DNA of 64,000 bases from a virus. The translations under genes and the position numbers were made by a program. The notes below the pieces were generated by a model, which was not told where the DNA came from, ran no database searches, and worked only from the letters and a program-made list of their open reading frames with translations. Shown here piece after piece: positions 18,024 through 49,729 of this stretch (position 1 is its first letter; each line of letters starts with the position of its first letter). The stretch lies in the IMG/VR virus record IMGVR_UViG_3300018080_000003, positions 79,728 through 143,727 of that record, one strand, 5' to 3'.

Positions 18024-18505
18024 AGCGCCGCCCCTTCGACGCCTTCGACTTCATCCCGGACGACTACTTGAATCCAAAAGAAACCATCATGAAGGTCACA
18101 CTCCAGTTCCACCACACCGAAGACGCCGCTCCGCCCCCAGACAAGGCGCTCGTGCTCCTCGAAGCCAGTGCCCTTTGTCAAAAAGGCGAGGAGCCCAAAC
18201 GTGTCTTCGAAGAGATGATGCTCGGACGTCGAGTCGACATGGACGATGGCACCTGGGGCTTTGCGCTCGAAGGCTGTGAACCTCAGGACCCAGAAGACTT
18301 CTACGCCTGGGCCGAGCTTCCCGCCATGCCAGCGCCGCGGCCTACCCCGACGGTCGATGATTACGAGAAGGCCGTTTTGGATCTCCTCGTCAAGTACGAG
18401 GAGGGCACGACAGATGATGCATCCTTGGTTCGCTCCGTTGGCGAGCTGTACAACCGTTTCCCTTCGCTCCGCATGCGAGCACGGCGAGAGGCGGCGAGGC
18501 GATGA
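18020..18505 (+). CDS. Hypothetical protein
   Basis: Coupled ORF. Confidence 0.65.
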   Translation: MKRRPFDAFDFIPDDYLNPKETIMKVTLQFHHTEDAAPPPDKALVLLEASALCQKGEEPKRVFEEMMLGRRVDMDDGTWGFALEGCEPQDPEDFYAWAELPAMPAPRPTPTVDDYEKAVLDLLVKYEEGTTDDASLVRSVGELYNRFPSLRMRARREAARR

Positions 18506-18777
18506 TCCCTGGACCCGGTCAGAAAGGCTACATCGGCAGCCTTCAGGCGGAGATCCTATCGGCCATACGAGAGAAGGGCGAAGCCCACGGGATGCTCATC
18601 GCTGACATCATCGACATGGACAAAAACGAGGTCTACCCGCCGCTTCGACGCCTGCTCAAGCGCGGCCTCATCGACCACAAGCCCCCCTTCTACGCCCCTG
18701 AGTCCCGAGGCGTACCCCGCAAGGTTTACTTTCTCACCGAAAAGGGACGGGCGGCGCTAGAACAGCTCGATGTCTGA
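18502..18777 (+). CDS. PadR-family winged-helix regulator
   Basis: VYPPLRRLLKRGLI...PRKVYFLTEKGRAAL. Confidence 0.8.
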   Translation: MIPGPGQKGYIGSLQAEILSAIREKGEAHGMLIADIIDMDKNEVYPPLRRLLKRGLIDHKPPFYAPESRGVPRKVYFLTEKGRAALEQLDV

Positions 18778-19036
18778 CGCCCTGACAGCGCTCCTGGACG
18801 CTCACAGTGGCTGGAACAGGCCCGAGCCCCGCAAGTCGAAGCCAAGAAAGCGGCTCAAGACCTACAAGACCCACTGCCGATTTCAGAGCGTGCGACGTGG
18901 GAAGACAGACCCCCGGTACTGCCACACCTGGGTGCTCTACATGCCCTGCGCCAAGGAGCACGTCAGCCACGCGGCCGAGCCTCCCGAGGACATCGCCTGC
19001 GTCAAAGCGGTCAGCTGCGACCTGAGGAAAGAATGA
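18770..19036 (+). CDS. Hypothetical basic Cys/His protein
   Basis: Coupled ORF. Confidence 0.55.
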   Translation: MSDALTALLDAHSGWNRPEPRKSKPRKRLKTYKTHCRFQSVRRGKTDPRYCHTWVLYMPCAKEHVSHAAEPPEDIACVKAVSCDLRKE

Positions 19037-19263
19037 ACAAGAAGCTCCGGGAAAGCATCAACGAGTGCCTTCGATGCCCAGACCACTGCGAGTCACTTGC
19101 CGACTACATGCACGACATGGGCAATGATGCTCGCAGATGGCTGAAGCAAGCCGAGCGCGCGGGTGACGAGAAAGAGATCGAGTCCTGCAAGAAGCTCGTT
19201 GAAGAAAACGACCTCTGCGAGCGGCTCCTCAGGGCGCTCGTCAAGGCCAGTATAGAGAACTGA
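19033..19263 (+). CDS. Hypothetical protein
   Basis: Coupled ORF. Confidence 0.65.
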   Translation: MNKKLRESINECLRCPDHCESLADYMHDMGNDARRWLKQAERAGDEKEIESCKKLVEENDLCERLLRALVKASIEN

Positions 19264-19264
19264 A

Positions 19265-19534
19265 ATGAAGGACATTGCAGACACCAACGCGACCCCCGAG
19301 TGGTACGACGACATCTATCGAGCAGGTGTGCTCGAAAAAGTCTCCACCATCGCCGCTGAGTACGAACTCACGCTCGAAGAGCTGAAGACGATGGCTCCCA
19401 CGCTCTATGGCTACGTCAACGGCTCCCCGAAGTACTACGGCAAGGCGCTCAGGGAGCTGTGCGCCCTCGTCGCCTGCGCCAAGGTACTCAAGCAGGAGCT
19501 TGAAGAGTACGGGCCTCACATCAAAGAGTATTGA
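19265..19534 (+). CDS. Hypothetical protein
   Basis: Coupled ORF. Confidence 0.65.
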   Translation: MKDIADTNATPEWYDDIYRAGVLEKVSTIAAEYELTLEELKTMAPTLYGYVNGSPKYYGKALRELCALVACAKVLKQELEEYGPHIKEY

Positions 19535-19566
19535 CTTGTTCACGTAACCATGGTTACGTCTAAAAT
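19531..19566 (+). promoter_or_regulatory. Promoter of the ncRNA cluster with a perfect 18-bp palindromic operator
   Basis: TTGACT at 19531, ACGTAACCATGGTTACGT at 19542-19559, TAAAAT at 19561. Confidence 0.7.
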
Positions 19567-19573
19567 GCCGCAA

Positions 19574-19629
19574 GGACGAAACGCTCTGCTGCAGAGCGTC
19601 TGAGGGTATGCACCCTCACTGATGAGTCC
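19574..19629 (+). ncRNA. Hammerhead ribozyme, type II; predicted cut after C19600
   Basis: GGAC-GAAA-[CGCTCTG/CAGAGCG stem III]-TC cleavage site (GUC triplet)-[TGAGGGT/ACCCTCA stem I]-CTGATGA-GTCC. The catalytic core is complete. Confidence 0.93.
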
Positions 19630-19632
19630 CGG

Positions 19633-19825
19633 CTCACGCGACGGAAGCTTTGACCCTCTTCGGAGGCGAGCTGAATCGCGGTCCTGTCTGCTTCTCCGGG
19701 TAGTGGCAGACGAGGGCGACGTGAGGGCGAGAGCATAACTACCTGAGAGCCTTGGTTCCAGCTCTCTCCAGGTGGGCCCAGTAATTGGAACCCTGGGCGC
19801 TGCGTTTAGCTAGCGCGGGCCCAGC
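19633..19825 (+). ncRNA. Unknown structured RNA (multibranch domain plus kissing hairpins)
   Basis: CTCACG/CGTGAG closing stem, cUUCGg tetraloop, loop-loop complement GGTTCCA (19754-60) / TGGAACC (19786-92). Confidence 0.6.
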
Positions 19826-19828
19826 TTT

Positions 19829-19900
19829 GCATCTGTCGCTCAGAGGATGAGCAGCGGCCTTCTAAGCCGACCCACGCAGGTTCGAATCCTGCCAGATGCG
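19829..19900 (+). tRNA. tRNA-Arg(TCT), CCA not encoded
   Basis: GCATCTG/CAGATGC acceptor, GCTC/GAGC D stem, CT-TCT-AA loop, GCAGG-TTCGAAT-CCTGC T arm. Confidence 0.85.
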
Positions 19901-19920
19901 CTCAAGAAAGGGGACCTCAA

Positions 19921-20337
19921 TTGAATCAAGAAGAGCAAGAAGGATGGTGGCTGACCGCTGAACAGTTTGATCCTGTCGACTGTGGCCACGTCGTCCATCC
20001 CTGGAACGGAGAGAGCATCGGAATCCTCTGGGAAGAGAAGGGCGACATCGAGTTCTTCTACAGAGAAGACCTGTCGCGCATCGAGCACTTGCAAGTCGAC
20101 GAACCAACCAAGCTGCTGCGGGCTCTGAAAACCATCATGAAGCTCGGAGGAGAGCACACCTCCGTTCGCATCCACTTCTTCGATCTTCGTCCGCCAAGAG
20201 GAAAAGTCGCAGAGCTGAAAAGCGACGCTGTCAGCAGTCACGTGCGAACGCGTGATGGCAGGAAGGTTTACCAAGATATCGGGCGCGCTGCCGTGCGCTT
20301 CGTCTGCGAAGTCCTTCAGGAGAGAAAGCGTGAGTGA
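19921..20337 (+). CDS. Hypothetical protein
   Basis: TTG start after AGGGG. Confidence 0.65.
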   Translation: MNQEEQEGWWLTAEQFDPVDCGHVVHPWNGESIGILWEEKGDIEFFYREDLSRIEHLQVDEPTKLLRALKTIMKLGGEHTSVRIHFFDLRPPRGKVAELKSDAVSSHVRTRDGRKVYQDIGRAAVRFVCEVLQERKRE

Positions 20338-20560
20338 AGACGCACGCAAGGCTCACCAGGCGAGGGTCGAAGCCGAGAAGTGCCTTCGAAGGGCACATTC
20401 CAACCTGACATCCGCCATCGACAGCGCCGAGAACGACAAGCATAGCTCCGCGCTTGAGGATGCCTCTTGGGCGCTCCAATACCTGGGAGCGGCCGTGATG
20501 CACCTAGGCAACGCCATTTACCACCAGACCAAGTGGGAATGCGCCCCGTACGGAGACTGA
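20330..20560 (+). CDS. Hypothetical helical protein
   Basis: GTG start after AGGAG. Confidence 0.65.
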   Translation: MSEDARKAHQARVEAEKCLRRAHSNLTSAIDSAENDKHSSALEDASWALQYLGAAVMHLGNAIYHQTKWECAPYGD

Positions 20561-32645: not shown

Positions 32646-32731
32646 AGCCCAGAAAGCCTAGCACCTCTCCGTTCGCCCTCATAGCCCCAACCTGGTATCC
32701 TCTCTGGGAGCTACCCGGAGAACCAAAAGAC

Positions 32732-35700
32732 ATGGCAGATGAAGGAAGCTGGGGCTTCAAGGGTTTCGGTGCGCGAGCGCTGGAGCTTCCCTCGGGGCAG
32801 GACGTCGAAGTTTCACCCGCTGATCGAGGGCGCCTGCGTTACAACGCGACGACCAGTCAGCTGGAGTTCTCCGCCAACGGAGGCGCCTACGCCGCACTCG
32901 GCATGGGCGGTGCCAGCCCCTGGCTCAGTGCCGCAGGCGTGACTCGGCTCCAGAACATCACAGACGATGTAGCCATTGGTGCGACCACCATGGCCGGCTC
33001 CGAGAAACTTCGCATCATCGGCGATGTGCGTGTTGAGTCCCAGGTTCAAGTGACTGAAATCACTTCAGTGCCCGGCTCTGCCCTCGATCTCGAAATCTCA
33101 GCCGACACCGGTAACGTCAACATGACGCTCACCGGTGGGTCTGGCTTCCGTGCTCAGAATGGCGTCGGTGACCCTCTCATCCGAGCGGTGCCTACGGGTC
33201 AAATCCTTCTCGGCGATCCTGCGATTCCGCTCTCCGGCGTCGACATCAGCGCTGACATCACGCTCGTGGAAGGCGACGAGCTGAACTACCGCGCCTCCGG
33301 CTCCACCGACAACCTGATCAGAGCTGAAGCGACCACCAACACCTTCAACGTGGGGCAGCTCGCGCCCCTCTTGGAAGTCGATCAGGTCAACGTCGGCACT
33401 CAGGTGCTCAATGCAGCGGCCTCTCCCAACGCGTTCCAGGTCGTCCAAGGCGCCAACAACTACCTGAATATCGACACCGCTGGCGGGGTCATTCAGATCG
33501 GTTCCACCGGCGGCACAGGCTCCACCCTAACCTTCGACGGGACAACCGGGTCCACCACCCTGGACTCTGAGCTGAACCAGGCCGCATCCTTCGTCCTTAC
33601 CGACGGCACCGACGACGCCATCGTCTTCGACGCCACCACCGGTGGTAAAAACCTCTCTCTCGGTGGTCCAAACATCGAGGTCGTCGTTCCCGGAAACAAT
33701 AACATTCGCATCGACGGGGGCTCTCTCTGCCTCGTTGAAAGAGCCACAGATCCGGCGGCCGTCGCCAACGAGGGCAAGGTCTACACGAAGGATGTTCTGG
33801 GCGTCACCGAGCTGTTCTACCGAGACTCAGCTGGCAACGTGCGGCAACTCACACCACCCGCAACAGGCGGCGCTCCGGGTGGCGCGAACACCAACGTTCA
33901 GTTCAACGACGCCGGGAGCTTCAACGGAAACGCCAACTTCACCTTCGATGGCACCAACGTCGACATCGCGACACAGCTCTCGGTGCCTGTCGTCCAAGGG
34001 ACTGGCGCGACTTTGGCTGTCGGAAACGGTGCAAGCGATCTGACGCTTCAAGGTGTCCCCGGCTCTGGAACGCTCTTCAGCTTGAGCGGAACCAACCCAT
34101 ACCTGACCATCGACGACAACACCAACGACATCGTCGTCGGCAACACCACCGACAACCCTGACCTGGAATTCTCCGGGAGCGGCAACGTCGCTCTCACCGG
34201 CGGAAGTCAGATCCTCTTCACCGAGCGCGTGGGTGACCCAACCCCCGCGGCCAACGTCGGTCAGGTCTACACCAAGGACGTCGCCGGTCAGACCGAGCTG
34301 TTCTACATCGACGCCGCTGGCAACGTCCGGCAGCTCACCCCGCCCGCAACCGGAGCGCCTGGTGGCGTCAACACCAACGTCCAGTACAACAACGCTGGTT
34401 CCTTCGACGGCAACAACAACTTCACGTTCGACGGGACTGCTGTCACGATCGCTACGCGTGTTGAGGTGCCCACGGTTCAAGGTACAGCTGGCAGCCTCGA
34501 ACTCGGCAACGGTGTGAGCAACATCACGATGACCGCTACACCGGCGTCGGCTACGGCCATCACGATCGGAACCTCGAACACCTACATCGCTATCGACGAC
34601 GCCGCAGGCAGCATGGTTCTGGGCAACGCACTGTCGAACCCCAGTCTGGAGATCGCAGGCTCGGGCGACATCGCCATCACTGGCGGGACACAGTTGGTGA
34701 TCACCGAGCGCGTCGGCGACCCTGGCGCTGCCGCCAACACCGGCAAGCTCTACACCAAGGACACCGCTGGCACGACCGAGCTATTCTACCAGGACAGCGC
34801 CGGTAACGTTCGGCAGCTCACGCCTGGTGGCGGTGGCGGAACGCCTGGTGGCGCCAACACTCAGGTCCAGTTCAACAACGCAGGCTCCTTCGACGGGAGT
34901 GCCAACTTCACGTTCGATGGAACCACCATCACGCTCGGGCCCGTCTCGGGAGTCTCGACCATCGAGACCGACATCAACATCGCGGACAACACCAACAACG
35001 CGTTCCTCGTCCGCGAAAACATCAACAACTACATCGAAATCGACACCTTCACCGCTGCCGAATCGATGTCATTCGGCAACGGTGGCGCTAACACCCCCTC
35101 GATGCTCTTCACGATCCGTGCAGCCAACAACAGTTGGCGGATCACTGAAGCCGGTACGTCGCGAGACTACATCAACATCAACGCAGGCGGCTCGAACAAC
35201 ATCGAGCTGGGAAACATCACCGGCGCTCCGAGCGTCGACATCGTTGGTGACGGTGGCCTGTACCTCCGTGGCGACAACCTCAACGATGGTTCGTTCCTCG
35301 ACATCCGAGAGCGCACCAGCGGACCTCCCCCCACGGCAGCTCAGCGTGGTCAACTCTTCACACTCGACGTCTCGACGGTGACCGAGCTGTTCTACCAAGA
35401 CAACACAGGAGCCAGCACTCAGCTCACGTCCGGAGGTGGCGCAGTTGTCGGCTCCACAATCATCATCAACGACAACCAGACCCAGGCCTTCAGCGTTCGT
35501 GAGGCCGCGAACAGCTACATCGACGTCAACACCACGAACGGGGCAGAGGCGATCACTTGGGGCAACGGGAATACCGATCCGTCCTTCTTCTTTGCAGGGG
35601 CGCCTGGACCCATCGACATCGACGTCTCTCCGGCCACTCCAGGTGCCAACGTCGACATGTGGACGGCCAACGCCGGAAGTCTGACCATCGGTAACACTGC

Positions 35701-43533: not shown

Positions 43534-44765
43534 CTCTTCGGCAGGCAACTAGTTCACCTACAGTAAAGAGCCCCGAAGGGCCTGCCCCGAAGGGCTTTCC
43601 TGCTTCACAGGGATGCCAACGCAAGAACCCTCCACAGGCAGGGCCGAGGCGTTCCCACGGCCTAGAATGATGGTAGCGGCATTCAAGTCCGCTTGCGAGT
43701 AGAAGCCACACGAAGTGCAGAAGAAGTCCTCGCCATCACGAGAGGCCTCGTCCGTGTAGCCGCACACCGAGCAGGTCTGAGAAGTGTAGGCAGGCTCCAC
43801 TTCGATCAGCTCCCCGCCGTTCCACTCCAGCTTGTACGCCAGCATCCCCCGGAACTGGCTCCAACCCGCATCTGCGATGTGACGAGCGAGAAAGGGATTT
43901 CGGATCATGTTCCTGACCCGAAGGTCTTCGATAACGACCCGCGAGTAGTTTCGAGCGTAGAAGGTCGAAAGCTCATGCAAGAAGTGGCGGCGCTGCTGCC
44001 GCACACGACGATGCAGTCGCGCAAGCTTCTTCTTCTGCTTCAAGAAGTTCGCCGAGCCCTTCTTCTTGCGACTGAGCTTCTTGTGCGCACGGCGAAGCTG
44101 TTCGAGCGAACGCTTGAGTGGACGTGGGCTCTTGATGAGACGACCGTCGCTGTCAGCTGCAAAGTAGGTGATGCCTCGATCGATGCCTATCGAGCGCTCA
44201 TCCGAAAGCCCTGGTGCACCGTGCTCGACCTCAGACAGCAAGCAAGCGTACCAGTGATCTGCGTCCCGCACGATGGTCACGCTCTTCATCTTCCCTTCGA
44301 AGGGACGGTGAACCACGATCTTCATCCTTCCCACCTTCGGGAACTGAAGCCTCGAACCTTCAAGCTTGCACGCGCGAGGCTCCGTCATGGCCATGCGATG
44401 GCGGCCCTTCTTTTTGAAGCGGGGCGCCTTGCTCACGCCTTTGAAGCAGCGCTTCCAGGCCTTCTCCAGTGTCATGAGCGTCTGTGTAGCAACGTCACGA
44501 GGGACGTCACGGATCCAGTCATGCTCTGCGCGAAGGTGCTTCAGCTGCTTGATCTGGTCGAAAGCCGTGGGGTACACCTTCTCCCCTTTGCAGCGGCGCA
44601 TGCCCATCAAATGCTGTTCCAGTGCAAGGTTCCACAAGAAGCGAAGGGTGTTCTCCCAGGAGAGCAGTCTCTGCTCCTGTGCTTCATCGGGATAGACCCG
44701 ATACTTGAAGGTCTTGTAGACCGGCACGGTCAAAGGCTAACCTATCTCTTGAGACAGGAGCAAGA
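43530..44765 (-). mobile_element. Non-autonomous tnpB-only element with a putative omega-RNA at its 3' end; boundaries approximate
   Basis: No tnpA present. Tandem cUUCGg hairpins at about 43569-43597 overlap the 3' end of tnpB. Confidence 0.55.
43558..44733 (-). CDS. tnpB: RNA-guided endonuclease TnpB (IS200/IS605 family)
   Basis: N-terminal HTH (KTFKYRVYP), RuvC GIDRG / VIEDL / ADLNAA, Zn finger TSQTCSVCG..CTSCG. Confidence 0.93.
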   Translation of the reverse strand: MTVPVYKTFKYRVYPDEAQEQRLLSWENTLRFLWNLALEQHLMGMRRCKGEKVYPTAFDQIKQLKHLRAEHDWIRDVPRDVATQTLMTLEKAWKRCFKGVSKAPRFKKKGRHRMAMTEPRACKLEGSRLQFPKVGRMKIVVHRPFEGKMKSVTIVRDADHWYACLLSEVEHGAPGLSDERSIGIDRGITYFAADSDGRLIKSPRPLKRSLEQLRRAHKKLSRKKKGSANFLKQKKKLARLHRRVRQQRRHFLHELSTFYARNYSRVVIEDLRVRNMIRNPFLARHIADAGWSQFRGMLAYKLEWNGGELIEVEPAYTSQTCSVCGYTDEASRDGEDFFCTSCGFYSQADLNAATIILGRGNASALPVEGSCVGIPVKQESPSGQALRGSLL

Positions 44766-46060: not shown

Positions 46061-49000
46061 CTAGAGGATGGCACCCCAGAGATGAACGGGGGTGGGAAGG
46101 TCGAAAGCGTTGCCGTTGCGACGGTAGTTCTCCCGGAAGATATCACCGACGAACTCTTGCTGGCGAGCAGAGGCAAACTCCTCGTTGAAGTCGTCGAACA
46201 TGCTTTCAGCGAACGTCGGCTCGACCACGGTAGAGCGCTCTCGGATCGACTCGTACGCTCGGATGATGCCTTCAGGGCGCTCCAGGCTCATGCCTTGGCG
46301 CCGAAGCATGCGACGAAGCTCGTCTTCCTGGGCAGGGGCGCAAGGCACCTTGTAGCTCTTCATGATCTCAACCAGGAGCGACGTGAACTCAGGACGCTGG
46401 ATGTACTGCTTGCCCTTCTGGCGCCCCTGGATGATCTCCCAAAGCCGCCGCGCGATCCGGCGCGCAACACACTCAGAGTGGGCCTGATGCCGGAGCGCGA
46501 AGTCTTCCTTGAAAGCCATCGTGTGCACAATGGTCTGGCTCTCGATGTTGAACAGCTCACGGAACGCCGACAGAGGAGCCTTGTCACACAGGGCGACGAG
46601 TCTCAGGGCTCTGTCCTCGGCGGCTTCTTTGCCAAACAACTTTCGCACCTCGTTCAAGTAGAACCGCTGACGCTTGCCGCCGGCTCCCACCGTCTGAAGC
46701 TCCCCCTTCTTCCGCTTCTTGATCAAAGCCATCGCGTCATACCCAGGCTGGTTGGCCACCCTTGAGACGAACACCTCCAGCTCGTCAGAGACGCGCTGCG
46801 CAGCAGCCTCGAAGCTCCGCGTGTTGACCTGACCTCGGCTTCTCGCCTTCTCCTCTTGCAGCTGATCTAGCGAACCATCGATGCTGCAAAGCGCGTCGAT
46901 GAACTTCGCGACGTCTACACGAGAGAACCGATCGAACTGACGCTTCATGCTGCGGACGGGCTGATTGGTCGCAGCAGCCAGCCAGTCCAGCATCTCCTCG
47001 CGCTCGTCAAACGGAAGATCGTAGACCGGGTCACTGTCTGCATACCAAGCCGGAGCCAGATCGCTCATGGGCTGCGGCGTCTGCTGCTTCTTCTCCCAGC
47101 CCTCTGGCGTGCCTGGTGTCGTGCGGTACTGGCCGCCACGGACGCGGAACCAAGCGATGATCTCCTCCGGAAGGTGCTCCCGAAACACCTCACGCGGCTC
47201 AGGCGCCCTGAAGCTACCTCGAAGCTTCGTCTCCGGCCACGGCGCCTCAGGCGCAACGAAGCGTCCCTCTCGGCCCGAAAGAACGTCTTGGACCTGCGCC
47301 GTCACCTTCAGCGACTCTTCGATCCACTTCTCCAGCGCGAGTACGCGGGTGAACTTCCCTGCATCAGAAGCCCACTCCATCCAAAGCTCAGACAGACCTC
47401 GGCACACACCATCATCTGGTCCGCAGTCTCCGACCTGCCCGGGGCTCATCACTGGCATCGCGGGGGAAAGCTTTCCGTCCGTGCCAAGCCACCAGTTGAG
47501 CCCGCTCTCCTTTCCGGAGAAGACCCAGTTGGCCAAGTCCAGACCAGCGGGGCCGTAGAGCCTCCCGTCGTCTGCTCTTGCACGCTGACGCTGGCGCGCT
47601 TCTTCGATCTTCGGGTCAAGCACGATCGGTTCATCATCCGGCTCGTCAAAGCGACCCACCAGCTTGCCGAAGTCCTCGAAGCTTAGATCCTCATCATCCT
47701 CATCTTCATCGAAGTCCTCGTCGAACTCACTTTGGTTCGGGATGAACTCCATCTTGGAGACCAAGCTCTGCTTCTTGCGGCCTCCGCTCTTGATGAGCTG
47801 CTGCCGGTTGCCCTTCTCGCCCCAATGGACCCGGTAGATGATGCAGAGCCGTCGAATCGACTCGGCGTCCAGACTCAAGCAGGTTTGAATCTTCGTATCC
47901 TCGCCGCTCGTCAGACGCTTGCCTCGACGCTTCTCGATGTTCTGGATGAAAGCTTCTTCGCTCGAAGGCCCTGGCGCGCTGCCCAGATCCTCGAACTCCA
48001 CCGCCTCGACCGGCTCAACTTCTCGGGTTTGAGGTCGCGCTGGGCGACGTTCCTCGGCTTGAGGTCGCGCCGGGCGAAGACGGGGGCGCGGCGCCTCGGG
48101 GACACCCATGGGCTCGATGTCCTCAGAAGAGATCGTCGGCACCTCAGGCTCAGGCGGAAGCTCACGGAACGAACGCCCAGGTACTGTCGCCCTGGGGGCG
48201 ACGCGGGCCCCCGATGGGGCCTCGGGCTGGGGCCGGAGCCGGAACGGCTCCGCGATCATCTTCTCCTCGTCGAACTCCTCGATGTAGAGGCCCGTCGTCG
48301 CAACACTCGTGTGGCCGAGCATCTTCTGAACCCGGTTCATGGGCGTTCCGCCTTCGATGGCGATGCGCGCGAACAAGCCACGCAAACCATGAGGGTGCGC
48401 TCGCTGGAAGTCCGGGCTTCCCGGCTCGATACCAGCCTTTTCCGCTCGACGGCGAAGCATCATCGCGATCCCCGGGCGCGTGAGACCTGCCTCGCCCGTG
48501 CCCGCGTTCGCGCCCCAGTAGGCAACGGCCGGGATGAGAGGCGCATCGTCGCGGCTCAAGAGCGACGCCGCGCGGCTCTTGCCCTGGTAACGGAGCTGGT
48601 GCTCTGCCATTTTCTGGATGCGGACATCCATCTCCACCAGGGCACGCTGCGCAGCAGGAGGCACGATCACCTTGCGCTTCTTGTTCCGCTTGCCAAGCAG
48701 CGTCACCATCGGCCGGTCGTAGTCACGACGCTTCAGGCGATGGACCTCCACCGAACGCGCACCCGTCTGCGCCATGAAGATAAGCAACGCACGATCCCGG
48801 ACGTCCTTGAACGTCGGCTCTCGCCCTCGGATGGGCGGGGGCACAGGACGGCCCCAGAATGCAGCCTCTGCCGCTGCCAAGGCACCGCCGCCGTGCGTTC
48901 GTGTGAACGTCGTAGCCAACAGCCGCAGGAAGAACGTCAAGGGCGTCTGCTTGGCCTTGCGCGCCTGCTGTCTGAAGCTCGGTGCCTCACTGAGCACCTG

Positions 49001-49729
49001 CTTCAGCGGCGGCGTCCAGATGTTGAACCGCAAGAGCGGCTCCTCACGACCCGGCACGTTCTCCGTGCTGCTCGTGATGAAGTACTTCCAGAGCGAGCTG
49101 AGGGCGCTCAAGCGCGTGACCATCATGGACGCACGCTCGGCGCCTGAAGGCGCCTGGACCTTCGGGACGTAGTACCGAAACACATCCTCAGGAGGCCGAA
49201 TGACAGCGCCTCCGTTCGCTCGTCGATATTCTTCAACCGTGGGTGTCCTCACCAGGGTCTTGGCTCTTACCAGACAGCCCAACCGCTTCACGTACCAGTC
49301 GTAGCTGCGCGTCATGAAGGTCTTGGTACGCAAACCCTCCAAGTTGATGCCAGGGTTGTCCTTCACGACCTCGAAGATGATGAGATCATCCCGGCGACTC
49401 GGGTCAGCACGCAACCGCTCCTCCGTCAGAGGGTCGTCGTGCTCACGCAGCCACCGAGCGAACTCTACCGCATCTGCACGCCGCACTTGGTCGGGAGTGA
49501 CGATTCGACCCTTCTCTTTACGGTACCACTCGAAGAACTGGAGAATGGAAAAGCTGTAGCTTCTCAGGGTGTTACGGCTCCTGATCGCACGAAGAAAGTC
49601 CACCAGCGCCGAAGTGAAGGCCTGACCACGAGGCTGGTACTTCCACTCCTGTCCGATCTGACCGAGGGTCAGCTCCGTTCGGGTCTGCTGATCCTGCGGC
49701 TTGTCGAGGCTGATGACACTCTGGGCCAC
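46061..49729 (-). CDS. Giant tyrosine recombinase (Xer/integrase catalytic domain plus about 700-aa unknown C-terminal region)
   Basis: Core-binding SRNTLRSY...LSALSSLWKYF; RDRAL..TGARSVE (R), LGKRNK (K), HPHGLR (HxxR), LGH, TTGLY (Y). Confidence 0.9.
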   Translation of the reverse strand: MAQSVISLDKPQDQQTRTELTLGQIGQEWKYQPRGQAFTSALVDFLRAIRSRNTLRSYSFSILQFFEWYRKEKGRIVTPDQVRRADAVEFARWLREHDDPLTEERLRADPSRRDDLIIFEVVKDNPGINLEGLRTKTFMTRSYDWYVKRLGCLVRAKTLVRTPTVEEYRRANGGAVIRPPEDVFRYYVPKVQAPSGAERASMMVTRLSALSSLWKYFITSSTENVPGREEPLLRFNIWTPPLKQVLSEAPSFRQQARKAKQTPLTFFLRLLATTFTRTHGGGALAAAEAAFWGRPVPPPIRGREPTFKDVRDRALLIFMAQTGARSVEVHRLKRRDYDRPMVTLLGKRNKKRKVIVPPAAQRALVEMDVRIQKMAEHQLRYQGKSRAASLLSRDDAPLIPAVAYWGANAGTGEAGLTRPGIAMMLRRRAEKAGIEPGSPDFQRAHPHGLRGLFARIAIEGGTPMNRVQKMLGHTSVATTGLYIEEFDEEKMIAEPFRLRPQPEAPSGARVAPRATVPGRSFRELPPEPEVPTISSEDIEPMGVPEAPRPRLRPARPQAEERRPARPQTREVEPVEAVEFEDLGSAPGPSSEEAFIQNIEKRRGKRLTSGEDTKIQTCLSLDAESIRRLCIIYRVHWGEKGNRQQLIKSGGRKKQSLVSKMEFIPNQSEFDEDFDEDEDDEDLSFEDFGKLVGRFDEPDDEPIVLDPKIEEARQRQRARADDGRLYGPAGLDLANWVFSGKESGLNWWLGTDGKLSPAMPVMSPGQVGDCGPDDGVCRGLSELWMEWASDAGKFTRVLALEKWIEESLKVTAQVQDVLSGREGRFVAPEAPWPETKLRGSFRAPEPREVFREHLPEEIIAWFRVRGGQYRTTPGTPEGWEKKQQTPQPMSDLAPAWYADSDPVYDLPFDEREEMLDWLAAATNQPVRSMKRQFDRFSRVDVAKFIDALCSIDGSLDQLQEEKARSRGQVNTRSFEAAAQRVSDELEVFVSRVANQPGYDAMALIKKRKKGELQTVGAGGKRQRFYLNEVRKLFGKEAAEDRALRLVALCDKAPLSAFRELFNIESQTIVHTMAFKEDFALRHQAHSECVARRIARRLWEIIQGRQKGKQYIQRPEFTSLLVEIMKSYKVPCAPAQEDELRRMLRRQGMSLERPEGIIRAYESIRERSTVVEPTFAESMFDDFNEEFASARQQEFVGDIFRENYRRNGNAFDLPTPVHLWGAIL

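Follow-up and report, generated by a model that had tools for sequence, protein, structure and literature searches.

A predicted hammerhead ribozyme and a conserved non-coding sequence upstream of tRNA-Arg in an uncultured phage

Background

In the tRNA operon of phage T4 the tRNAs are co-transcribed with the stable RNAs C and D (species 1 and 2), two small RNAs of unknown function that the tRNA-processing machinery releases. Self-cleaving ribozymes also adjoin phage tRNAs: this is the case for the theta ribozymes, of the hepatitis delta virus (HDV)-like class, for which an action on the 3' trailers of tRNAs has been proposed (Kienbeck et al. 2024, PMC10879173). Type II hammerhead ribozymes cleave in vivo in Desulfovibrio vulgaris (PMC8782182), and in most of them the stem I loop forms a pseudoknot with the 3' tail (PMC3088659). 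Here we analyze a locus in an uncultured phage, IMG/VR record IMGVR_UViG_3300018080_000003, in which a type II hammerhead, a conserved non-coding RNA and a tRNA-Arg gene follow one another. The record is 143,727 bp long, with direct terminal repeats and 60% G+C. Its right-hand 64 kb (64,000 nucleotides [nt], record positions 79,728 to 143,727) is called the window below, and coordinates are those of the window unless another locus is named.

What bacterial and phage hammerheads do is largely open. Nearly all copies of the subclass to which the one in the window belongs follow a stop codon and precede the ribosome-binding site (RBS) of the next gene, a placement that fits the cutting of polycistronic mRNAs and says little more. 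The unit described here is compact and self-contained, comprising in about 400 nt a hammerhead, a conserved RNA, a terminator-type hairpin and a tRNA. It raises the questions of whether a ribozyme can make the 5' end of a stable RNA, how a 5'-hydroxyl (5'-OH) bears on the fate of that RNA, and whether the RNA body controls read-through into the tRNA. A first-pass annotation had read the locus as an operator-bearing promoter, a complete type II hammerhead core cut after position 19600, about 190 nt of highly structured non-coding sequence and a tRNA-Arg(TCT), the ribozyme and the tRNA acting as processing punctuation that would release a defined RNA of about 228 nt. Our analysis indicates that a conserved ribozyme-headed non-coding RNA upstream of the tRNA is very likely real, and that the unit is probably functional, since one related phage keeps the same layout.

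Results

A related phage with the same cassette

The phage has no close cultured relative that we could find: its helicase is less than 30% identical to that of any GenBank phage, and a blastn search of 50,697 GenBank phages with the cassette region gave matches confined to the tRNA part. Scans of IMG/VR seeded with four proteins (those of the upstream and downstream open reading frames [ORFs], the MoxR ATPase and the helicase) likewise gave no relative. With the 89-amino-acid (aa) protein encoded upstream of the cassette as query, an 81% identical homologue (P0003) was found on an 82.9-kb Logan contig, locus L148. The 138-aa protein encoded downstream matched only itself, because its homologue in L148 had been called on the wrong strand. 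L148 is syntenic with the window over about 16 kb, with 80–95% nucleotide identity per block, and the synteny stops just upstream of about position 19508. Both genomes have the order TTGACT, palindrome, hammerhead, RNA, tRNA-Arg(TCT), RBS, ORF.

Are there further relatives? Among some 15 billion proteins, the 90% identity cluster of the MoxR ATPase has two members, those of the window phage and L148, so that these two genomes provide all the close comparative evidence. A third locus (L005) has a copy of the cassette identical to that in the window, so it adds no comparative information. Remoter MoxR relatives are mostly on short contigs, and the only informative one is a distant relative, L155 (MoxR 42% identical), which has neither the hammerhead nor the middle RNA.

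The hammerhead ribozyme

Reading from position 19574, the element has the order GGAC-GAAA, stem III, GUC, stem I, CUGAUGA (19619–19625), GUCC. Stem III (19582–19598) is a 7-bp hairpin closed by an A-U pair, with the loop CUG; stem I (19601–19618) is a 7-bp hairpin with the loop AUGC; stem II is GGAC paired with GUCC, and an outer GCCG/CGGC helix (19567–19570 with 19630–19633) extends it across a CAA bulge. With loops closing stems I and III and stem II left open, the hammerhead is of type II. The conserved core is complete: besides CUGAUGA it has GAAA (19578–19581) and the NUH triplet GUC (19598–19600), the G10.1-C11.1 pair corresponds to G19626 with C19577, and the A15.1-U16.1 pair to A19581 with U19599. 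The complete core and the predicted cut after 19600 thus stand as first annotated, backed by the core motifs, the three helices, the predicted fold and conservation in L148. Hammerhead cleavage leaves a 2',3'-cyclic phosphate, here on a short 5' piece, and a 5'-OH, here on U19601.

For the 67-nt element the minimum free energy (MFE) and centroid structures are both the canonical three-way junction (-30.4 kcal/mol, z = -3.5), a stability matched by none of 200 shuffled sequences. The canonical fold has a frequency of 0.37 in the ensemble of the isolated element and is also kept within a 262-nt context. In L148, 64 of the 67 nt are identical (95.5%), and the three changes are consecutive and all in the stem III loop; at the substitution rate of the middle RNA, the remaining 64 nt would all be unchanged with P = 0.008. 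The helices are identical in the two phages, and hence show no covariation.

The covariance search that the first-pass annotation had suggested for type II hammerheads did give a match to RF02276, the sole credible one in 144 kb, with 25.3 bits (E = 0.006 locally, 4e-4 for the whole genome), which is below the gathering score of 37 bits. Does this count against the element? When IMG/VR was searched with the pattern GGACGAAAC, gap, GTC, gap, CTGATGAGTCC, a short-stem type II subclass having the same 4-bp stem II was found on at least 119 contigs. Thirteen subclass loci, with about 20 copies, gave no hammerhead match in Rfam at gathering, so a score below the cut-off characterises the subclass and does not speak against the window copy. 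Clear type I hammerheads in two metagenome loci described below (L130 and L135) gave no match either, and with the 13 subclass loci they show that the cut-off does not discriminate for short hammerheads. Among the matches listed, the base before GGAC is A in 131 of 134 distinct copies, the median length of stem I is 7 pairs and loop I measures 3–5 nt; the window hammerhead is typical on all three counts. By every sequence criterion, then, it is genuine.

Where the window copy departs from its subclass is in its surroundings. Among the matches listed, a median of 5 nt separates the preceding stop codon from the start of the ribozyme; downstream, the following start codon is reached after a median of 26.5 nt and, in 82%, within 60 nt. 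Most of the few copies with a distant start codon conceal small ORFs. No tRNA is present within 400 nt of any of 147 copies. The window hammerhead is ordinary as a ribozyme and unusual in what comes after it. It is of note that the subclass (A-GGAC-GAAAC ... CUGAUGA-GUCC-A) is very abundant in phage contigs (L006–L124), often with several copies per contig, and that in 31 of the 134 distinct copies among the matches listed the 3' tail contains AUCAG, which can pair with CUGAU of the core.

Inspection of the sequence against the published description of type II hammerheads (PMC3088659) found no complement of loop I (AUGC) in the tail directly after stem II; the only match, GCAUA at 19733–19737, is 100 nt off and at chance level. 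The CAA bulge of the extended stem II could provide a tertiary contact instead.

A candidate second hammerhead upstream of a tRNA-Thr (RF02276, 12.9 bits) was rejected: its motif reads CUGAAGA and it lies inside a Cys-rich ORF.

The non-coding RNA

Between 19535 and 19920 there is no credible ORF. The gap holds only a 38-aa ORF on the plus strand and a 58-aa ORF on the minus strand, both without an RBS, and the substitutions relative to L148 have no third-position bias in either frame; a coding reading was accordingly rejected. No Rfam family matched the middle RNA (19634–19828) at E up to 10 among 4227 covariance models, which included riboswitches, T-box, tmRNA, 6S, RAGATH and GOLLD/ROOL.

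The homologue of the middle RNA provided by L148 differs by 14 substitutions in 195 nt, i.e. about 92% identity counting substitutions only, or 88% counting indels. For comparison, the 138-aa ORF after the tRNA is 77.6% identical at the nucleotide level (83.5, 90.6 and 60.4% at first, second and third codon positions), and the two ORFs after it are 65–68% identical, with third positions again at about 60%. The middle RNA is far better conserved than the third positions, which are about 60% identical, of the next ORF (Fisher P about 1e-12; 5e-9 with indels). Might the cassette simply be a young segment? The unconstrained promoter positions of the same module differ at 9 of 37 sites versus 14 of 195 in the middle RNA (P = 0.004), and because they have diverged more the cassette is not simply young. 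Judged from this comparison, the sequence is clearly constrained and under purifying selection; the first-pass annotation would have been refuted by a middle RNA that was not conserved, and the opposite was found. The tRNA-Arg, whose presence after a non-coding stretch was confirmed by ARAGORN and Rfam, is 100% identical in L148 (P = 0.004 for no change at the middle-RNA rate).

A structural model of 80 pairs is 98% compatible with both sequences. Two of the L148 substitutions lengthen helix H1 by two pairs, another disrupts a pair of H2, and the remainder are mostly at looped or bulged positions. Substitutions avoid paired positions in 19567–19768 (P about 0.0004–0.001, using the MFE structure of the window sequence alone) and in the full cassette (P = 0.009, using ensemble pairing probabilities).

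We also looked for possible targets. Antisense matches of the middle RNA in the phage genome are only 12 nt long and at chance level (E = 1.5), and a search with a 16-mer of the single-stranded joiner gave four chance matches, inside coding DNA. The apical loop of H2, UUCUCCGGGUAG (19692–19703), is one of the 12-nt cases: it is perfectly complementary to 32711–32722, the ribosome-binding region of a 1107-aa ORF that starts at 32732, this match being at the chance level just given genome-wide.

The 3' end: terminal hairpin, H4a and a loop-loop pair

The middle RNA ends in a GC-rich hairpin that abuts the tRNA. In L148 the bulge is lost through an indel; the hairpin there has 13 uninterrupted pairs (-25.0 kcal/mol), and the U8 after it runs directly up to the tRNA, a sequence that was scored as terminator-like. 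The distant relative L155 has a hairpin (-25.7 kcal/mol) and U5 flush against its own tRNA-Arg(TCT). These features suggest that the 3' end of the middle RNA is probably set by termination and not by RNase P alone. Cuts after 19600 and at 19828/19829 would indeed give the 228 nt first proposed, but RNase P would then not be the sole maker of the 3' end. Since the RNA 3' end coincides with a terminator-type hairpin, the tRNA and the downstream ORFs would depend on read-through. The hairpin abutting tRNA-Arg in L155 (18880–19008 of that locus) may be the older arrangement in this phage group.

A second hairpin, H4a, forms in the absence of the terminal 3' strand (-8.6 kcal/mol). Its 3' strand, 19793–19798, is also the 5' strand of the terminal hairpin, and GGGCCCAG is present twice, at 19774–19781 and 19817–19824. 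The loop of H4a is complementary to that of H3, and the two could kiss. This helix had been proposed from the window sequence before L148 was known, and it is the sole helix in the model with a pair changed on both sides: in L148, C19759 is U and its partner G19787 is A, a compensatory change from C-G to U-A, while A19760 is G and still pairs with U19786 as G-U. The predicted energies of the kissing pair in the two phages are -9.6 and -7.3 kcal/mol. Because H4a competes for a strand of the terminal hairpin and GGGCCCAG is duplicated, H4a together with the loop-loop contact is a possible antiterminator; as modelled, H4a is a candidate for this role by its anatomy only.

The control region and neighbouring genes

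Upstream of the hammerhead, TTGACT and the 16-bp core of a palindrome are identical in L148; the spacer and TAAAAT differ (TACAGT in L148). The window has four exact copies of the palindrome GTAAC-N4-GTTAC; with one mismatch allowed there are seven, versus 0.24 expected for that relaxed search. Two copies follow TTGACT at the same 7-nt spacing, two are directly before an RBS, and L148 has the palindrome in the cassette and at the MoxR site, both of them syntenic. The sequence evidence thus says that it is a real regulatory motif. The sites, at transcription-unit starts, are 635, 14101, 19544 and 28055 in the window and 4937 and 11641 in L148. The only promoter-like match is the sigma-70-like TTCACG-16-TAAAAT, which agrees at 9 of 12 positions. 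Of the operator-bearing promoter proposed at first, the palindrome therefore holds up as real, recurrent and conserved; the sigma-70-like hexamers are weak and are not kept in L148. A PadR gene (18502–18777) was considered as the source of the palindrome-binding protein; it is absent at the syntenic place in L148, where the palindromes are kept, and this proposal is unsupported.

The hammerhead starts 33–40 nt after the stop codon of the upstream ORF (19265–19534), whose product has no PHROG or Pfam match. A terminator scan of 19000–20400 found no terminator-like site; because there is none between this ORF and the cassette, the hammerhead may also cut read-through transcripts. Downstream, the RBS is 7 nt and the TTG start codon about 19–20 nt after the tRNA, and with a start so close to the tRNA end the 138-aa ORF is probably co-transcribed with it. 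The same type of RBS follows the tRNA-Thr and other genes. The features of the locus are collected in Table 1.

Table 1. Features of the cassette and its immediate neighbours, in window coordinates
Feature	Positions	Strand	Evidence or remarks
Upstream 89-aa ORF	19265–19534	+	ORF list; TGA stop (19532–19534) overlaps the TTGACT hexamer
Conserved control region	19508–19566	+	TTGACT (19531–19536), palindrome ACGTAACCATGGTTACGT (19542–19559), TAAAAT (19561–19566)
Type II hammerhead ribozyme	19567–19633	+	Core sequence, fold, RF02276 match, conservation in L148
Predicted self-cleavage site	19600/19601	+	3' of C17 in GUC, from hammerhead numbering applied to the sequence
Conserved non-coding middle RNA	19634–19828	+	About 195 nt; no ORF, no Rfam family, conserved in L148
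Candidate helices of the middle RNA	H1 19637–19680 (UUCG loop); H2 19681–19717; H3 19741–19773	+	Predicted folds
Single-stranded joiner of the middle RNA	19718–19740	+	Predicted fold
H3 loop GGUUCCA	19754–19760	+	5' half of a possible 7-bp kissing interaction; complementary to 19786–19792
Hairpin H4a (GCCCAG/CUGGGC)	19776–19798	+	Loop carries UGGAACC (19786–19792)
Terminal GC-rich hairpin and CUUU	19793–19828	+	Hairpin 19793–19824, 13 bp, one bulged G, -21.3 kcal/mol; abuts the tRNA
tRNA-Arg, anticodon TCT (reads AGA), no encoded CCA	19829–19901	+	ARAGORN; RF00005, 56.9 bits versus cut-off 29
RBS AAAGGGGA and 138-aa ORF, TTG start at 19921	19908–20337	+	Sequence, ORF list

Discussion

Proposed mechanism

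We lean, by a modest degree, towards reading the cassette as a conserved non-coding transcription module of this uncultured phage that works as follows. Transcription would start at, or read through, the control region marked by TTGACT and the recurrent palindrome. The transcript would enter the hammerhead, and the self-cut after C19600 would drop a short 5' piece and leave a 5'-OH on the downstream RNA. This RNA would be about 225 nt long (19601 to about 19825–19828) and consist of the 3' half of the hammerhead and the conserved 195-nt body. Its 3' end would be made by termination at the GC hairpin or, where polymerase reads through, by an RNase P cut at the start of tRNA-Arg. The tRNA-Arg(UCU) and the downstream ORFs would be expressed only when the hairpin is read through. 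The hairpin would compete with H4a, whose loop can kiss that of H3, and in this way the RNA body may tune read-through. In this scheme the cleavage, the RNA ends, the stability of the RNA and the switch are inferred, as is any action in trans by the RNA once released.

What would the 5'-OH be worth? A 5'-OH evades the 5'-monophosphate sensing of RNase E. The 5'-OH product of the glmS ribozyme, however, is degraded by RNase J1 in Bacillus subtilis, so the protective value of such an end depends on the host. A gene for RtcB, which could ligate 5'-OH ends, was not found in the phage.

Several observations weigh against the proposed module. For the middle RNA by itself the avoidance of paired positions is not significant (P = 0.11–0.28 with the ensemble; about 0.4), its stability does not exceed that of shuffled sequences (z = -0.5 for 19634–19828), and RNAalifold favours a different fold. 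As modelled, then, the fold of the middle RNA is not uniquely determined, and its helices are candidates only. Of the highly structured non-coding stretch that had been described, the non-coding part is borne out; the strong structure is not, the whole-cassette fold likewise having a z-score of only -1.3. The cassette is carried by two genomes only, so the power to detect covariation is minimal, and a shuffle control of the covariation was uninformative (247 of 500). Phages are mosaic, and the cassette could be a more recently exchanged segment, which would inflate its apparent conservation. The sigma-70-like hexamers are weak and are lost in L148. Finally, the U-tract in the window is merely CUUU, too short for the criterion of the terminator scan, and termination in the window may be weak or absent.

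Alternative explanations

That the ribozyme and the tRNA punctuate a free RNA is itself only partly upheld: the conserved ribozyme-headed RNA is there, and a cis-regulatory role is a serious alternative. The middle RNA might be purely a cis-acting leader, an attenuator or a processive antitermination element, that has no role as a free RNA. H4a would then form early and, locked by its contact with H3, would block the terminator, a factor that broke the contact would cause termination, and the hammerhead would merely trim the 5' end or part the unit from the upstream mRNA. The anatomy described above agrees with this: H4a and the terminal hairpin share 19793–19798, GGGCCCAG is duplicated, H4a forms when the terminal 3' strand is absent, the kissing pair covaries and is predicted to be stable in both phages (-9.6 and -7.3 kcal/mol), and L148 has a full terminator with genes needing expression behind it. 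The layout of promoter, conserved RNA, terminator and genes also resembles that of the put sites of HK022 and the EAR element of Bacillus. That said, no riboswitch, T-box, put-like or EAR model of Rfam matched at E up to 10, no ligand or factor is known, the terminator is far stronger than H4a (-21 to -25 versus -8.6 kcal/mol), the degenerate U-tract of the window perhaps leaves little to regulate, and L155 keeps the hairpin and the tRNA without any leader. We regard a leader without a free-RNA role as doubtful, though less so than the other alternatives. Less likely again is a combination of the two functions in a new kind of riboregulator, a ribozyme-capped leader in which an antiterminator stabilised by kissing loops gates the tRNA and the genes, and whose terminated 5'-OH product doubles as a stable small RNA. 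A lead within that possibility is that the H2 loop, which resembles an anti-Shine-Dalgarno sequence, may target RBSs such as that of the ORF at 32732.

Could the RNA have no function at all? The hammerhead might be an intercistronic cutter like others of its subclass, the 195 nt being a functionless 5' leader of the tRNA plus the terminator of the upstream operon, and the conservation the result of recent modular exchange. The subclass does sit between a stop and the next start, and here the ribozyme comes 33–40 nt after a stop with no terminator between; L148 synteny breaks immediately upstream of 19508, so that the boundary of the cassette would be a recombination junction; identity between the two genomes varies from block to block, between 80% and 95%; and the stability of the middle fold is unremarkable. 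We nevertheless consider recent exchange of a functionless leader improbable. The greater divergence of the promoter positions (9 of 37 versus 14 of 195, P = 0.004) implies that the module is not simply young, and the ORF after the tRNA is 40% diverged at third positions. Moreover, predicted helices contain both a compensatory change and an indel that repairs a helix, and a functionless leader of 195 nt would be unusual in a tightly packed phage genome. We give hardly any credence to the idea that the hammerhead is inactive, or held off by alternative pairing, and that the conserved region acts as DNA, as a binding or recombination site. The RNAalifold consensus does swap stem II for a small competing hairpin, inspection found no pseudoknot between loop I and the tail, and the upstream palindrome is a DNA-level element. 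Yet all catalytic nucleotides are intact, the 64 core and helix positions are unchanged in L148 while the stem III loop took three substitutions (P = 0.008), and in the ensemble of the isolated element the canonical fold is the dominant one (frequency 0.37).

Other features of the window

Some features elsewhere in the window may be recorded here. Two tandem tRNA-like units (37089–37349), neither called by ARAGORN, are directly upstream of a tRNA-Ile(AAT) (37355–37431). The first, about 174 nt, resembles a tRNA in its acceptor, D-arm and T-arm, encodes the CCA and contains a large internal insertion; the second, 86 nt, has a weak match to tRNA-Sec (18 bits). The window also encodes a histidine kinase with HisKA and HATPase_c domains (40394–41449, plus strand), a TnpB/IS605 OrfB-type protein with OrfB_IS605, Cas12f-like TNB and HTH domains (43558–44733, minus strand), and a 1222-aa protein whose sole recognised domain is a phage-integrase catalytic domain (46061–49729, minus strand). 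The best genome matches of the TnpB protein, 33–45% identical, are in two archaeal metagenome-assembled genomes and one from an uncultured bacterium, which does not identify the host.

Comparison with known systems

In its layout the cassette recalls RNAs C and D of T4, which uses host RNases only and no ribozyme. It is like intrinsic terminator/antiterminator leaders in having a GC hairpin and a U-run (complete in L148) and an upstream hairpin that competes for one strand, and differs from them in that the window hairpin is flush against the first base of the tRNA, the U-run is CUUU, and no sensor domain or family match was found. With the theta ribozymes it shares a small self-cleaving ribozyme linked to a phage tRNA and proposed to help define RNA ends; the class is different, however, and the window hammerhead is separated from the 5' end of the tRNA downstream by some 230 nt that include another RNA. 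The described type II hammerheads (RF02276; Perreault et al. 2011, PMC3088659) have the same core, the same permutation and the same phage intergenic site after a stop codon. Here stem II is extended across the CAA bulge and no pseudoknot between loop I and the 3' tail was found, and, unlike in the subclass, what follows is a 195-nt non-coding RNA and a tRNA rather than an RBS.

Searching metagenomes for the pattern hammerhead 3' half, 234–264 nt, tRNA T-arm gave 16 loci, none of them related to the middle RNA. A marine family among the metagenome cassettes (L130, L132, L134, L138, L143 and L144; for instance L130, 2168–2529) has the order tRNA-Met, type I hammerhead, about 150 nt, tRNA-Arg(TCT), its RNA being AT-rich and closed by a long-range helix and a U-run. 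A second family (L137 and L140; L135 is also listed) has a hammerhead-like element, about 170 nt and a tRNA-Tyr. The two families share the 9-mer UUUCGGCAC, and none of their hammerheads reaches the Rfam gathering score. Local alignment of the middle RNA with the bodies of L130, L135 and L137 gave scores equal to the shuffled mean, and blastn and nhmmer searches of 119 hammerhead-bearing viral loci gave no match to it. A literature search found no paper describing a hammerhead–non-coding RNA–tRNA unit. The metagenome cassettes (the L130 family, L135 and L137) are thus like that of the window in the order hammerhead, roughly 130–190 nt of non-coding RNA, tRNA, but have type I hammerheads and AT-rich bodies where the window has a type II hammerhead; as judged from their sequences the design is the same, and homology is not shown. 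The window cassette adds a type II example to a design of ribozyme, unnamed RNA and tRNA that is otherwise seen with type I hammerheads, and the recurrence of this design suggests a general, undescribed way in which phages build transcription units that join a small RNA to a tRNA.

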